Positions 2,450 through 16,868 of a stretch of DNA of 22,290 nt are shown here, in pieces. Under the pieces are notes generated by a model. That model did no database searches and was not told the origin of the DNA. It saw only the letters and a program-made list of their open reading frames with translations. The translations under genes were made by a program, and so were the position numbers. Every line of letters starts with the position of its first letter. Positions within the stretch are counted from its first letter, which is position 1. Source of the stretch: a virus (Duplodnaviria > Heunggongvirae > Uroviricota > Caudoviricetes); the IMG/VR virus record IMGVR_UViG_2675903562_000009; one strand, written 5' to 3'.

Positions 2450-3000
2450 TATCGCACCCTCAACAATGAATTTTGTGATGCGGTGCCTGGTGCCTCCAGG
2501 TGACGTTAACCAGTTAACAATTAACGCCGGATACAGAACCCCACCCATAACTTGGTTTTAACTGTTCCGCGTGCGCTTAGCCGCATTCACCGCATCACAA
2601 AATTCACTTTAAAAAGGACGGCAGAGCAGTCACGGAGTAAAACTGATACCGCCAAACGCCACCAGAAAATTGATAACAGAGGGCGTTGCAGCGGGGTTGT
2701 CACTTAAGCGCATGGTCAACCTGACAACCCGGTGTCTCAATGGGGGAGGAATAACCCCGCCATACTTACCGCCGCGCCATTTCGCGGAGTGCCACAACCG
2801 GAAGCGCACGGTCGACGAAAATTTAACGACAGGCTATCTATGAACCAACTACCTCGCCGTGCGCTTTCGCGTTATGCCCTGACTTTTCAGGAAAATGCCC
2901 TTTCAGTAAACTGTCAGTGCCGGATGCTCACCCGTGTCCGGCGCACGCACTCCACCTCACCCGTGGAGAACCCCTTAATTACCAACCCTCAGGAGGGTGA

Positions 3001-3223
3001 AATGACTAGTAAAAATGTAAATATCCAGTTTAACCACGATGTTTCTCCTGCTGGACTTGCGGATGATCTCACCGCTATAAAAACGGCAATTATGCTACTT
3101 GCTGCTAAGTTGCCTGCGTCATCAAAGCCAGCGGAAATTTGTGACTCATTGCGTAAGATGAATTCAACAAAATGCAATGAGATGGCATCACTTATTGAAA
3201 GTGCAATTGATTTTAATGATTAA
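3001..3223 (+). CDS. Hypothetical protein (73 aa) encoded opposite to the leftward operon
   Basis: ATG at 3001 preceded by a strong SD (GGAGGGTGAA). The long form of the track ORF (2732..3223) has an Arg/Pro-rich, non-protein-like N-terminal part and is not adopted. Confidence 0.45.
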
Positions 3224-3587
3224 TCGAAATTTCATGGCTAACTGTAACCCTCCCATCTGTGGCGGGATGGTTTAAATCGCTGGGATTAATGCCGCACTCA
3301 GTAAAATGGTTCTTAAGGGGTTCTATCCGAATCCCTTTCTTTTTCATTAACAAGCCAAACCCCTTATCAATGATATCCATTAATTCCAGGAAGTATTTTT
3401 CATGTAAATCCTGGCTATCAGAGAGCCGCTTCTCTTCGTACAGACCGATAAAGGCACGACGCACGTTACCGGATATAGTATCGATGGTTTCTTTTTCTAC
3501 GGTACTCAGGTCAAGAGTCGCCAGTTGGAAACGAACTATATTCGCTGCCATTTCCTGGAATTGCATTGGTAAATCTTTAAATTCCAT
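3213..3587 (-). CDS. Hypothetical early-left protein (124 aa)
   Basis: Track ORF with protein-like composition (E/K/D/L rich) and a GAGG SD upstream of the ATG at 3587; the overlapping plus-strand ORF 3259..3606 is S/R/F-rich and looks antisense. Confidence 0.55.
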   Translation of the reverse strand: MEFKDLPMQFQEMAANIVRFQLATLDLSTVEKETIDTISGNVRRAFIGLYEEKRLSDSQDLHEKYFLELMDIIDKGFGLLMKKKGIRIEPLKNHFTECGINPSDLNHPATDGRVTVSHEISINH

Positions 3588-3609
3588 TATTAGCCTCGTT
3601 GGTTAGCTA

Positions 3610-3828
3610 TTAACGTGGGTATGTAATCATTCTGGCAATGCTTAATGCCGCTGCTTTTTCCAGCCTGGTGATATCCTGCTCCAGAGCGGACAGATTTTCA
3701 GCCTGCTTAGCCCTGGCTTCATTGGCCCATTTCAGATCCTGCGCTGCATTAATTTTCTGGCGCATCCACTCATAAAGTTCATCATCGGTATAGTCTGGCG
3801 CGATGATGACGGGTTCTCGTTTCTGCAT
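3610..3828 (-). CDS. Hypothetical protein (72 aa), first gene downstream of the putative pL
   Basis: Track ORF; GAGGA SD about 6 nt upstream of the ATG at 3828; charged, helix-prone composition. Confidence 0.55.
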   Translation of the reverse strand: MQKREPVIIAPDYTDDELYEWMRQKINAAQDLKWANEARAKQAENLSALEQDITRLEKAAALSIARMITYPR

Positions 3829-4013
3829 ACTGATTCCTCGCGGTGCTGTTTCCCCTTAACGCCGGGGTGGCGGAACAAAAACCTGCTGCATAGTTATTAA
3901 AGTTGAACCCTGCCGTCATGTTCTTACGCCTCGGGCTGGCTACTTACCCCCTGACCACTGCCTGGTAACTCGAAGTATTGCCCTGCATTCTGTGGGGCGG
4001 GGTGGGTTGGTAT

Positions 4014-8037: not shown

Positions 8038-8460
8038 ATGGCAAAAGTTTTTACACAAGAAGAGCGAGAAAAAATTAAAGGGCAGGTTGTTGAACTCGTA
8101 CGCCAGAGTGGGCGTGAGACGTTACGGCAACTGGAAGTCAAGACAGGTGCGACAAGATATCTGATGAGCGTTCTCGCAAGAGAGCTGGTTGCCAGCGGCG
8201 ATGTATACAACTCTGGTTACGGGTTATTCCCGTCTGAACAGGCGCGTAAGGACTGGCAAAATGCCCGTAAAAAACTATCAAGGGCAAAGGTGAAGAAACC
8301 GGTTGTGGTTGATCCTGACCTTATCTGGTCATTACCCGACGGAGAAATACGTCGTTACGACAGGCGTCTGAACATAATCTGTCGCGAGTGCCGGAAGAGT
8401 GAGGTTATGCAGCGAGTGCTGGCGTTTTATCAGGGTAATTTTCAGGAGGTGATGGCGTGA
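8038..8460 (+). CDS. Hypothetical phage protein (140 aa)
   Basis: Track ORF 7972..8460 trimmed to ATG 8038, which follows a GGGGAGGG SD. Confidence 0.6.
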   Translation: MAKVFTQEEREKIKGQVVELVRQSGRETLRQLEVKTGATRYLMSVLARELVASGDVYNSGYGLFPSEQARKDWQNARKKLSRAKVKKPVVVDPDLIWSLPDGEIRRYDRRLNIICRECRKSEVMQRVLAFYQGNFQEVMA

Positions 8461-8870
8461 GGGTGAGGGTTTATATCGCTGGTCCGATGACCGGGTATAA
8501 AAATTTCAACCGTGAGGCGTTCCACAAGGCGGAAGAGGAACTGAAACGGGAAGGGCATACAGTCTTGAACCCGGCAGTACTTCCGGACGGGCTGACACAG
8601 CCACACTACATGGATATCTGCATGGCGATGATTCGTTGCGTGGATGCGATTTACATGCTGCAAGGCTGGCAGCGGTCAGCAGGCGCTAAAGCGGAACTGG
8701 CTCTGGCGGAGAAGCTAGGGCATGTGGTTGTTTTTCAGAGGGGGCGATATGCCGATTCTCTGGTTTCAGGAGGTGTGGGAAAAAGAAATGTGGGAAGGTC
8801 TTGTGATTGTGGCCGAAACAGTTCTTTTATTATGGTCTGTGATTGCGTGTATTTTTATGATTTATTGTGA
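8457..8870 (+). CDS. DUF4406-like protein (nucleoside 2-deoxyribosyltransferase-like fold)
   Basis: GTG start overlapping the upstream stop (GTGA) with AGGAGG 6 nt upstream; N-terminal YIAGPMTG...NF pattern typical of this family; the Cys-rich C-terminal tail is atypical. Confidence 0.55.
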   Translation: MRVRVYIAGPMTGYKNFNREAFHKAEEELKREGHTVLNPAVLPDGLTQPHYMDICMAMIRCVDAIYMLQGWQRSAGAKAELALAEKLGHVVVFQRGRYADSLVSGGVGKRNVGRSCDCGRNSSFIMVCDCVYFYDLL

Positions 8871-9480: not shown

Positions 9481-9691
9481 AAACGGTTTGCAGTGAAAGG
9501 GGAGTTAAGTAGAATTGCTGCGGGTGCTTGAGGCTATCTGCCTCAGGCATGAACACCAAAAGGCAGATAGAGAAAAGCCCCAGTTAACATTACGCGTCCT
9601 GCAAGACGCTTAACATTAATCTGAGGCTCAATCTATGTCTCACAAATGTAGGTTAGCCTCTTACGTGCCGAAAGGCAAGGAGAAGCAGGCT

Positions 9692-9847
9692 ATGAAGCAG
9701 CAAAAGGCGATGTTAATCGCCCTTATCGTCATCTGTTTAACCGTCATAGTGACGGCACTGGTAACGAGGAAAGACCTCTGCGAGGTACGAATCCGAACCG
9801 GCCAGACGGAGGTCGCTGTCTTCACAGCTTACGAACCTGAGGAGTAA
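9692..9847 (+). CDS. hok: Hok/Gef-family type I toxin (51 aa) with in-frame upstream extension from 9635
   Basis: MKQQKAMLIALIVICLTVIVTALVTRKDLCEVRIRTGQTEVAVFTAYEPEE is near-identical in pattern to Gef/HokC as remembered; AAGGAGAAG SD; structured leader upstream and a 3' hairpin (GCGAGGG...CCCTCGC at 9856-9877) typical of hok mRNAs. Confidence 0.8.
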   Translation: MKQQKAMLIALIVICLTVIVTALVTRKDLCEVRIRTGQTEVAVFTAYEPEE

Positions 9848-9915
9848 GAGACCAGGCGAGGGAGAAATCCCTCGCCACCTCTGATGTGTCAGGCATCCTC
9901 AACGCACCCGCACTT

Positions 9916-9937
9916 AACCCGCTTCGGCGGGTTTTTC
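9916..9937 (+). terminator. Rho-independent terminator after hok
   Basis: AACCCGC-TTCG-GCGGGTT followed by TTTTT. Confidence 0.7.
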
Positions 9938-10062
9938 GTCGCATAATGAGGTTGTAATTTTAGCTACCATTAGACTATCCTAAGGATCTCAAACAGATCT
10001 ATTTTGCATCAAATTTGGTGCATGGCTTTGCCAATAATCGGAAAACAAAAGGACTCATTAGT

Positions 10063-10242
10063 ATGAGCTGCCCACTCAAAAAACACACGCGGTTGAGTAT
10101 TCCGCCTCGCGATAAAAGCGTTGTGGCAGTCCCTCGCCCAGCGATTGATGAAAACTGCGCACATCGTGAACAAGTGAAAAATGCTTTTGATTTCGGTTTT
10201 TCTCGTTATGAGAAAGCCATGGAAGAACTTTCAAAAGTGTAA
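10063..10242 (+). CDS. Small ORF (59 aa) upstream of the Doc-like toxin; candidate antitoxin
   Basis: AAGGA SD 9 nt upstream of ATG 10063; ends 18 nt before the Doc-like start; sequence not recognisably Phd/YefM-like. Confidence 0.45.
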   Translation: MSCPLKKHTRLSIPPRDKSVVAVPRPAIDENCAHREQVKNAFDFGFSRYEKAMEELSKV

Positions 10243-10260
10243 TGATGGGTATTGTGCTCT

Positions 10261-10746
10261 ATGGCTGAGATTGTTGAAGGAGTGCATTACCTTACGGTTG
10301 ATGATCTTGTTGAAATCAATCGTTCCCTAATTGAATTACAGACGCCAGATGAGCCCGTTGGTGTTCTGAGTCCAGATAACTTAAGTTCTTCTCAGGCCCG
10401 TCCCAGCATGGTTCGATGGTATGAACAGACTAATGACATGTTTGTACTGGCATCGGTATTGATTGAAAGTCTGATTCAGAATCATCCGTTTGCTAATGCG
10501 AACAAACGAACAGCTATGATGGCTGGTTACGTCTTCTTGTTGTTGAATGGCTATGAGTTAACAGCACCAGGCGATGAAATCGTGGAAATGGCAGAGGGAC
10601 TGGCCTGCAAAACCTATACTCGAGAAGATCTCGAGAACTGGTTGTGTTATTGGTCTCGCGCGTATGACAGCCGGGAATTATGTAAAACAGGCGCAACTAT
10701 TGTTTTGTATGAAACTATCAAGCTTAAAATAGAACAGCAAAACTAA
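10261..10746 (+). CDS. Doc/Fic-family toxin-like protein
   Basis: Contains HPFANANKRTA, matching the Doc-type variant of the Fic motif (HxFx[D/N][A/G]NKR); size is appropriate for a Fic/Doc family member. The track start is a TTG at 10252; the ATG at 10261 is preferred. Confidence 0.7.
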   Translation: MAEIVEGVHYLTVDDLVEINRSLIELQTPDEPVGVLSPDNLSSSQARPSMVRWYEQTNDMFVLASVLIESLIQNHPFANANKRTAMMAGYVFLLLNGYELTAPGDEIVEMAEGLACKTYTREDLENWLCYWSRAYDSRELCKTGATIVLYETIKLKIEQQN

Positions 10747-10760
10747 AGGTGCTTCCAATG

Positions 10761-10789
10761 AAAACCCGCTTCGGCGGGTTTTGTTTTTT
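10761..10789 (+). terminator. Rho-independent terminator after the Doc-like gene (possibly bidirectional)
   Basis: AAAACCCGC-TTCG-GCGGGTTTT followed by GTTTTTT; same stem-loop sequence as the terminator at 9916. Confidence 0.7.
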
Positions 10790-10861
10790 CCTGGCATTCT
10801 GGTTTACAATTCGCACGCCAGCCTGAACAACTGGCACCTGCTGCGCCAGCAGAGACAACCG

Positions 10862-16558: not shown

Positions 16559-16634
16559 GGCCCTTTAGCTCAGTGGTGAGAGCGAGCGACTCATAATCGC
16601 CAGGTCGCTGGTTCAAATCCAGCAAGGGCCACCA
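16559..16634 (+). tRNA. tRNA with CAU anticodon; closely resembles E. coli tRNA-Ile2 (ileX-type, lysidine-dependent), Met not excluded
   Basis: 76 nt with perfect 7-bp acceptor stem (GGCCCTT/AAGGGCC), D-arm GCTCAGTGGTGAGAGC, anticodon loop CTCATAA, T-loop TTCAAAT and encoded CCA. Confidence 0.85.
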
Positions 16635-16635
16635 A

Positions 16636-16712
16636 CCGTCACCAGTTCATCAGGAAAGAGCGTCAACCCTTTAAGTTGAGTGTGCGAGGTTCGAGTCCTC
16701 GGTGGCGGGCCA
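16636..16712 (+). tRNA. Non-canonical tRNA-like gene (anticodon loop CCTTTAA, nominal UUU) or tRNA pseudogene
   Basis: Acceptor stem CCGTCAC/GTGGCGG (one G-U), T-arm CGAGG-TTCGAGT-CCTCG and encoded CCA, but C at positions 8 and 33 and an atypical D-arm. Begins 1 nt after the preceding tRNA. Confidence 0.45.
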
Positions 16713-16714
16713 GT

Positions 16715-16790
<76 letters not shown>

Positions 16791-16793
16791 TAT

Positions 16794-16868
<75 letters not shown>

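Follow-up and report, generated by a model that had tools for sequence, protein, structure and literature searches.

A Doc-family toxin and a putative neutralization-only antitoxin in a moron of a lambdoid prophage

The DNA analyzed here is a virus sequence of 22,290 nucleotides (IMG/VR record IMGVR_UViG_2675903562_000009, Caudoviricetes), referred to in its whole length as the window, in which a small open reading frame (ORF) encoding 59 amino acids is followed by the gene for a 161-amino-acid protein of the Doc family. The two genes probably constitute a bicistronic type II toxin–antitoxin (TA) moron, in which a Doc kinase is preceded by a 59-residue antitoxin that serves for neutralization only, derives from the AbrB-type doc_partner antitoxins, and has no DNA-binding head. 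A preliminary description, made from the DNA letters without database searches, had proposed a Doc/Fic-like toxin with a small upstream ORF in the antitoxin position. Both ORFs were recovered where it had placed them, the 59-residue product was identical to the one it had quoted, and the NCBI Prokaryotic Genome Annotation Pipeline (PGAP) called the same two genes in identical E. coli DNA.

Conserved pairing of a small gene with a Doc subfamily

By sequence family, the 161-amino-acid protein is a Doc-type Fic protein and a clear Doc-family toxin. It matched the NCBIfam model TIGR01550 (DOC_P1) over model positions 2–122 of 122 (128.5 bits against a cutoff of 38.65, E = 1.5e-37), the Pfam family PF02661 (Fic; 46.6 bits against a cutoff of 24, E = 6.6e-12), and phrog_577, which is named "Doc-like toxin" in the PHROG database and is placed there in the category "moron, auxiliary metabolic gene and host takeover". 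Its nearest solved relatives were the Doc of E. faecalis (9vzc_A, 4.7e-13) and P1 Doc (3k33, 5.6e-5). The motif HPFANANKR occupies residues 75–83, with Lys in place of the Gly of Fic proteins. The Doc motif HxFx(D/N)(A/G)NKR was kept in all 19 aligned members of the subfamily, and the AMPylating Fic motif HxFx[DE]GNGRxxR was found in none of the 19. These matches bear out the Doc/Fic-like assignment of the preliminary description. All invariant Doc residues are present in the window protein, and the gene is under purifying selection (ratio of nonsynonymous to synonymous differences, pN/pS, of 0.06–0.22).

The subfamily carries a C-terminal extension of ~30 residues beyond the TIGR01550 model (residues ~128–161, nt 10643–10746), which is absent from P1 Doc. 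W131, R133, D136, and C141 are invariant in the extension; W127, just upstream at the end of the region covered by the model, is also invariant. The AlphaFold2 (AF2) model of Doc alone, based on a shallow alignment of 19 close homologs, had a mean predicted local distance difference test (pLDDT) score of 51 and was too poor for use; its secondary structure was all-helical, as expected.

The pairing of the two genes was examined in genome loci seeded on Doc, with one genome per species, and in viral loci of IMG/VR seeded on the small ORF. A small-protein homolog of 55–59 amino acids lay directly upstream of Doc in every Doc-seeded genome locus of the subfamily (22/22), and these loci spanned Enterobacterales, Gilliamella, and Pseudomonas down to 45% Doc identity. 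An ORF of 154–166 amino acids with the Doc motif was present 3–18 nt downstream of the small ORF in all of the viral loci (80/80). The gap between the two genes was 0–18 nt in the genome loci wherever the Doc frame was intact, and a G-rich Shine–Dalgarno (SD) sequence lay 5–10 nt before the ATG in almost all of 26 compared loci. The good SD sequence of the small ORF in the window (AAGGA, 9 nt before the ATG) and its antitoxin position, both pointed out in the preliminary description, are those of a conserved and tightly linked partner.

In E. coli, the pair occupies the nin region of lambdoid prophages; in a Salmonella prophage it is flanked by tail genes, in Pseudomonas phages it adjoins a P2-like integrase, and in Providencia it lies on the chromosome between topA and sodC. 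It moves as a unit between unrelated contexts. Plasmids held essentially no copies, the sole match being a 4-Mb Proteus record. The arrangement is the generic layout of type II TA systems, namely two adjacent, co-oriented small genes that are co-inherited, with the antitoxin position first and a short junction.

The small ORF was intact in three genome loci in which the Doc frame was disrupted. Clear two-frame frameshifts of Doc were identified in Proteus penneri (locus 2977–3455) and Arsenophonus nasoniae (locus 2986–3442), and the first ~15 Doc residues were missing from the match in Providencia sp. Me31A (locus 528–968). The reverse decay (small ORF broken and Doc intact) was never seen among the loci compared. 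Doc is broken first and the small ORF is kept, as would be expected if the two are a toxin and its antidote. In Symploca, Sphingomonas, and Mesorhizobium, which hold the three most distant Doc loci, the position of the small gene was occupied by an AbrB/SpoVT-type antitoxin (TIGR02609, "doc_partner").

The small ORF as a gene under selection

No match to the small protein was found in Pfam, NCBIfam (E ≤ 1 for the window protein), or PADLOC, and a Pfam search at E ≤ 10 returned no hit shared among 35 members of its family. The protein matched phrog_2208, a PHROG family annotated as function unknown, from end to end (6.9e-41). The family formed 15 clusters at 90% identity, and 38 representatives at 50% identity were retrieved from 1.84 billion proteins. 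The representatives were 38–121 amino acids long and matched over most or all of their length, except for one outlier of 2917 amino acids that matched over a 25-residue stretch only. Five of the longer members were checked and had no recognizable extra domain; the start codons of the N-terminally extended members were probably mis-called. A literature search by accession and PHROG identifier found no mention of the family in the searchable text.

The C-terminal 24 residues (EQVKNAFDFGFSRYEKAMEELSKV) were almost invariant among close relatives. The N-terminal half was variable except for the motif R-L-x-I-P-x-R-D-K, of which I13, P14, and R16 were conserved in at least 90% of the members. Codon analysis gave a ratio of nonsynonymous to synonymous rates (dN/dS) of 0.09–0.3 for the small ORF. 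In the comparison with a 90%-identical E. coli variant, pN was 0.05 and pS was 0.39; synonymous sites were saturated in comparisons with other genera (pS of 0.6–0.9). For the C-terminal half with the predicted helix, pN was 0.02–0.1 in most comparisons (up to 0.25), as opposed to a pS of 0.4–1.0. These values show purifying selection on the small ORF, which is a genuine gene.

The 90%-identical variant, termed here the PSS-15-type cassette, encodes a small protein that differs at 7 of 59 positions. When window positions 10063–10746 were compared with positions 3208–3891 of this cassette, pS was 0.39 in the small ORF and 0.11 in Doc, and the divergence of the leader was also higher. This contrast suggests either a recombination breakpoint inside the cassette or a faster turnover of the antitoxin half.

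Similarity to AbrB-type antitoxins and predicted structure

A profile–profile alignment (hhalign) of 35 small-family sequences with an alignment of doc_partners matched small-family columns 5–57 to the last 48 doc_partner columns, with the C-terminal residues in register (score of 24.4, E = 1.7e-4). Controls shuffled by column or by block (200 of each) all stayed below this score (mean of 9.4, maximum of 18.2), and a control with MazE, the AbrB-type antitoxin of a different toxin, scored 7. The alignment covers the last two β-strands (β3–β4) of the AbrB domain plus the C-terminal tail. It begins after the N-terminal DNA-contacting hairpin of the doc_partners (KIGNSxGVxLP), which has no counterpart in the small family. 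The small protein had no hit to TIGR02609 in NCBIfam, and none to PF04014 was obtained in Pfam for the 35 members at E ≤ 10. The best reading of these comparisons is that the small protein represents the C-terminal ~45 residues of AbrB-type doc_partner antitoxins after loss of the N-terminal head, and not an unrelated new fold. The preliminary description had raised the possibility of a distinct antitoxin family; this can be kept in the sense that the protein falls in no curated family, and has to be given up in the sense of an unrelated fold, as the protein aligns with the C-terminal half of the doc_partners.

Other relationships were tried and rejected. A Phd identity was excluded by hhalign against the authentic P1 Phd, whose sequence was verified against 3hry and 3k33 (probability of 1.1%), together with the lack of a Pfam or NCBIfam hit, and the earlier remark that the small ORF has no resemblance to Phd/YefM was correct. 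A class I Fic inhibitor (FicA/VbhA type) was rejected, as the motif [ST]xxxE[GN] is absent from the window protein and occurs in two of the 35 members by chance, at non-homologous positions. A profile search of the Protein Data Bank with the small family returned only ribosomal protein S25 at an E-value of 0.2, which is spurious. The comparison with EFPhd of E. faecalis, for which the query was rebuilt from the structure record and the peptides given in the paper, was not significant, though the alignment fell in the same register from His to the C-terminus.

The AF2 model of the small protein, based on the 35-sequence alignment, had a mean pLDDT of 82, with residues 1–33 as coil and residues 34–57 as a single helix; the block-mean pLDDT was 93–94 over residues 41–59. 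The hydrophobic moment of the helix ranked in the top 4% of shuffles, and no DNA-binding fold was predicted. The check by profile and structure prediction that the preliminary description had suggested for the two proteins had this outcome: Doc matched the Doc profiles and gave a poor structure model, and the small protein matched no profile and gave a model of coil plus helix.

Proposed mechanism

The reading that we prefer is as follows. The cassette would be a bicistronic type II TA moron that a lambdoid prophage carries in its nin region. Its Doc kinase would be toxic by phosphorylating elongation factor Tu (EF-Tu) and thereby arresting translation, as judged from family membership. The 59-residue protein would be an antitoxin cut down to its neutralizing module, with 33 mostly unstructured N-terminal residues that bear the R-L-x-I-P-x-R-D-K motif. 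Its C-terminal amphipathic helix (residues 34–57) would neutralize the toxin physically by docking into the concave face of Doc, like residues 52–73 of P1 Phd and residues 52–79 of EFPhd. Such a protein may have originated by N-terminal truncation of an AbrB-type doc_partner, with retention of the last two β-strands and the C-terminal tail. As the DNA-binding hairpin would have been lost in this process, the small protein is probably not a classical operator-binding autorepressor. We would guess that the conserved N-terminal motif contacts the C-terminal extension specific to this Doc subfamily.

That a helix alone can serve as antitoxin is plausible in view of three published results. A peptide comprising residues 52–73 of Salmonella Phd was sufficient for picomolar binding of Doc, blocked EF-Tu phosphorylation, and rescued growth (PMC9207808). 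A SUMO-stabilized Phd-C element neutralized a Doc without the Panacea domain, and single-domain antitoxins consisting only of a neutralization domain exist according to the authors (PMC10440598). In 9vzc, the ordered part of the AbrB-like antitoxin is limited to residues 52–79, a bent helix that occupies the concave side of Doc (PMC13034048).

Several results weigh against a headless, neutralization-only antitoxin encoded in an operon. The HHpred-style probability of the doc_partner match was only 50%. The likeness to those helices of Phd and EFPhd that are seen in structures was not significant in hhalign, and the docking geometry thus rests on analogy. With a pLDDT of 79–85, the segment modeled without secondary structure may be ordered when bound to a partner, and the conserved residues I13, P14, and R16 could serve in DNA contact or another role. 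In addition, a strict sigma-70 scan of the cassette leader found no promoter.

A bolder extension of the proposal, which we regard as speculative and rather doubtful, is that headless Doc antitoxins derived from truncated AbrB-type doc_partners are widespread and have abandoned operator binding. On this view, the module would be controlled after transcription, by structured 5′ leaders with two or three hairpins and, in some lineages, pairing against the SD sequence. The R-L-x-I-P-x-R-D-K motif would grip the Doc extension, and the module could act as a prophage-encoded abortive-infection switch and not in addiction.

Leader region and candidate operators

The foremost alternative sees in the small protein a DNA-binding antitoxin of a new kind, which would bind the inverted repeat GATCT-N5-AGATC or the 18-bp near-palindrome of the leader, alone or together with Doc, and thereby repress its own promoter. 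Most type II antitoxins are autoregulated, and the N-terminal half of the protein is basic (six Lys/Arg and three Asp/Glu), has a conserved motif, and aligns with the β3–β4 part of the AbrB domain. Short inverted repeats of some kind occur in the leader of every lineage, and the GATCT repeat is situated just downstream of the best −10-like hexamer. This hexamer belongs to the best promoter candidate identified by eye, a weak TTGTAA-18-TATCCT at 9952–9981 (8/12 match), and the 90% variant may have its counterpart at the same positions (TTGTGA-18-TATGCT).

The inverted repeat GATCT-CAAAC-AGATC reported in the preliminary description is present, and its proposed role as an autoregulatory operator was not sustained. 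An equivalent repeat, defined as at least one perfect repeat with 5-bp arms and a loop of 3–8 nt, occurred in 55% of the sequences obtained by shuffling the 127-nt leader with its dinucleotide composition preserved, which is chance level. The leader diverges strongly between lineages, and the repeat is kept only within nearly identical window-type copies; the PSS-15-type cassette has unrelated sequence there, although so few residues of the small protein are changed. Neither is a DNA-binding fold predicted by AF2, and the N-terminal hairpin through which AbrB-type proteins contact DNA is missing. The near-palindrome reached a level attained by 7.4% of the shuffles, and in 11 of 25 window-type viral copies a C-to-T change breaks its DNA symmetry and keeps a G·U pair in RNA.

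As RNA, the GATCT repeat and the near-palindrome fold into adjacent hairpins (9984–10022), and the folding of the window leader was significant (z of −3.1 and −2.2). In leaders of the Kluyvera/Citrobacter type, four changes are tolerated in a GGAUGU/ACAUCC hairpin, each giving a G·U pair, and a UCCUC stretch pairs with the SD sequence. The G·U-compatible substitutions in the window-type and Kluyvera/Citrobacter-type leaders fit RNA hairpins better than DNA palindromes. Taking these points together, we consider a DNA-binding antitoxin unlikely. Leaders of different lineages had two or three short hairpins each, differing in sequence and with mostly G·U-compatible substitutions. Judging from these sequences, the leader hairpins may provide control at the RNA level. 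RNA folding was not significant in the PSS-15 and Salmonella leaders, and for this reason no general claim on leader RNA structure is made.

Alternative roles of the cassette

Another explanation is that the small protein does not neutralize Doc but is an accessory that Doc requires for some other purpose: it might help Doc to fold or complement its fold, adapt its specificity, or sense a trigger. The pair would then be a prophage-encoded abortive-infection or host-takeover device and not an addiction module. The occurrence of the pair at moron or accessory positions in unrelated temperate phages and the PHROG category of the Doc family are in line with this explanation. P1 Doc is inhibited by Phd "through fold complementation", in the words of a reference title cited in PMC10440598, and the antitoxin in 9vzc leaves the catalytic motif uncovered and works through dimerization (PMC13034048), which means that binding need not amount to occlusion. 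Against an accessory role, gene order, short gap, and size are those of the classical antitoxin–toxin layout, Doc is broken in loci with an intact small ORF, as expected of an antidote, and the protein is homologous to the tail found in Doc antidotes that are proven or accepted as such. No PADLOC model scored above noise, and a defense role would be compatible with the small protein also being an antitoxin. We consider an accessory that does not neutralize Doc quite improbable.

That the cassette is an inert remnant with an inactive toxin and a passively carried small ORF is highly improbable: the prophage region does hold decayed genes, such as a truncated DUF4406 gene, and Doc is frameshifted in some lineages, but both frames are intact in the window with every invariant Doc residue in place, purifying selection on both genes is strong even when close E. 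coli variants are compared, and the cassette recurs in E. coli genomes (identical in 4, with at least 80% query coverage in 119).

Cassette borders and prophage context

The coordinates of the features are listed in Table 1. Both ORFs are co-oriented within 9900–10800 and separated by an 18-nt gap. The terminator sequences on the two sides of the cassette form a perfect 20-nt direct repeat (9916–9935 and 10763–10782) at a distance of 847 bp, and the hairpin of the left copy had a folding energy of −13.9 kcal/mol (z of −2.9). In an alignment with phage Evi, the flanks are contiguous with one terminator and no cassette, which is an empty site, and several lambdoid phage records matched the two flanks only, which there adjoin or lie near each other. 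The Doc pair thus forms a discrete 847-bp moron with its own terminator, directly following a type I hok/sok module, and it is present or absent between otherwise collinear phage genomes. The ~25 nt after the left terminator copy are a diverged likeness of the sequence after the right copy.

Table 1. Features of the Doc cassette and its surroundings in the window.
Feature	Position	Strand	Description
Small ORF	10063–10242	+	59 amino acids; ATG at 10063, TAA at 10240–10242; PGAP WP_001277774.1 "hypothetical protein"; phrog_2208 family; putative neutralization-only antitoxin
Doc-family toxin ORF	10261–10746	+	161 amino acids from ATG; PGAP WP_000818167.1 "type II toxin-antitoxin system death-on-curing family toxin"
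SD sequence of small ORF, AAGGA	10049–10053	+	9 nt before ATG; read from sequence
Terminator stem-loop, left copy, 20 nt, AACCCGCTTCGGCGGGTTTT	9916–9935	+	Closes the upstream hokD unit; left cassette edge
Terminator, right copy	10761–10792	+	9-bp stem, GNRA-like loop, T-run; closes the cassette; from terminator scan, direct repeat, and fold
Leader/promoter region, 127 nt	9936–10062	+	Weak promoter candidate at 9952–9981
Inverted repeat GATCT-CAAAC-AGATC	9985–9999	strand-neutral	Candidate operator of the preliminary description
Near-palindrome, 18 bp, TGCATCAAA and TTTGGTGCA (half-sites)	10005–10022	strand-neutral	8/9 positions match
Predicted amphipathic α-helix, HREQVKNAFDFGFSRYEKAMEELS	10162–10233	+	Codons 34–57; proposed Doc-binding element
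Catalytic motif HPFANANKRTA	10483–10515	+	Doc residues 75–85; fits Doc-type HxFx(D/N)(A/G)NKR

The 1-kb stretch 9850–10850 was 100% identical in four complete E. coli genomes, and the query coverage was at least 80% in 119 of 5,426 genomes. PGAP annotates both genes in the identical E. coli DNA, where they belong to a lambdoid prophage and are flanked by hokD and the DUF968/rusA genes. The hok/sok type I TA module immediately upstream of the cassette occupies 9522–9847 (Rfam sok, 121.6 bits; Hok/Gef ORF at 9635–9847), and two unrelated TA modules accordingly lie back to back, each closed by the same terminator sequence. Elsewhere in the window, Rfam identified the DicF small RNA (2616–2667, − strand, 70.8 bits) and a cluster of three transfer RNA (tRNA) genes (16559–16865). 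Both features fit a lambdoid prophage of the Qin/Rac kind. Outside the cassette, feature offsets in the window differ from those in strain TW10690, so that the two are not collinear there and the prophage is mosaic. The DUF4406 ORF (8457–8870; Pfam 9.2e-38, residues 4–93) runs on into unrelated sequence, and its equivalent in TW10690 is flagged by PGAP as a C-terminally truncated pseudogene.

Comparison with known systems

One close counterpart is the system of the AbrB/MazE-type doc_partners with Doc (TIGR02609; the composite mazE-doc TasA-TasB, PMC1626090; and EFPhd-EFDoc, 9vzc, PMC13034048), in which the antitoxin gene is directly upstream of Doc, as is the small ORF here. EFDoc is the closest solved relative of the window Doc; EFPhd binds EFDoc by a bent helix at its C-terminus (residues 52–79), about as long as the helix predicted for the small protein. 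As counted by eye, His54 of EFPhd is followed to the C-terminus over 25 residues, the same as for the conserved His34 of the small protein. The doc_partners are 73–79 amino acids long, whereas the small protein has 59 and is without their N-terminal β-hairpin and helix (KIGNSxGVxLPKE), which form the swapped-hairpin DNA-binding dimer of AbrB. The window Doc subfamily, in turn, adds its C-terminal extension.

Phd-Doc of P1 and Salmonella (3k33, 3dd7) shares the Doc motif and the prophage-borne two-gene operon with the antitoxin gene first. Phd neutralizes Doc via a C-terminal helix that is sufficient by itself (PMC9207808), and by analogy the same may apply to the small protein. Aligned by eye, the spacing of F42, F46, Y49, M53, and L56 in the small protein would equal that of the Phd hot spots 56, 60, 63, 67, and 70, and both proteins end three residues after their last Leu. 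The small protein differs in that it has neither the N-terminal domain of YefM/Phd nor detectable sequence similarity to Phd, and the window Doc is distant from P1 Doc.

PanA-Phd-C:Doc and the antitoxins described as a "linear neutralization element" (NetFlax, PMC10440598) embody the same concept, a short Doc-binding element joined to various N-terminal domains or to none; the small protein differs by having no Panacea domain. The class I Fic antitoxins (FicA/VbhA/YhfG) are likewise small (~55–60 amino acids), helical, and encoded upstream of a toxin with the Fic fold. The small protein lacks their inhibitory motif, however, and the window toxin has the Doc motif in place of the AMPylating Fic motif.

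Significance

The small family is most likely an unannotated, narrowly distributed antitoxin family of a Doc subfamily, and as such a variant of a well-known kind of system. Since Doc is annotated as a type II TA toxin and its partner as a hypothetical protein, the modules look like orphan toxins. This affects prophages of E. coli, Salmonella, Providencia, Yersinia, and Pseudomonas, and the annotation would be mended by naming the 59-residue family as the cognate antitoxin. If the proposed mechanism is true, the small protein would provide a natural minimal Doc inhibitor of ~26 residues, comprising the helix and the tail, which would be relevant to the work on Phd peptide mimetics (PMC9207808). 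It would also be a natural antitoxin without a DNA-binding domain, by which it may be tested whether a Doc module can do without conditional cooperativity and autoregulation.

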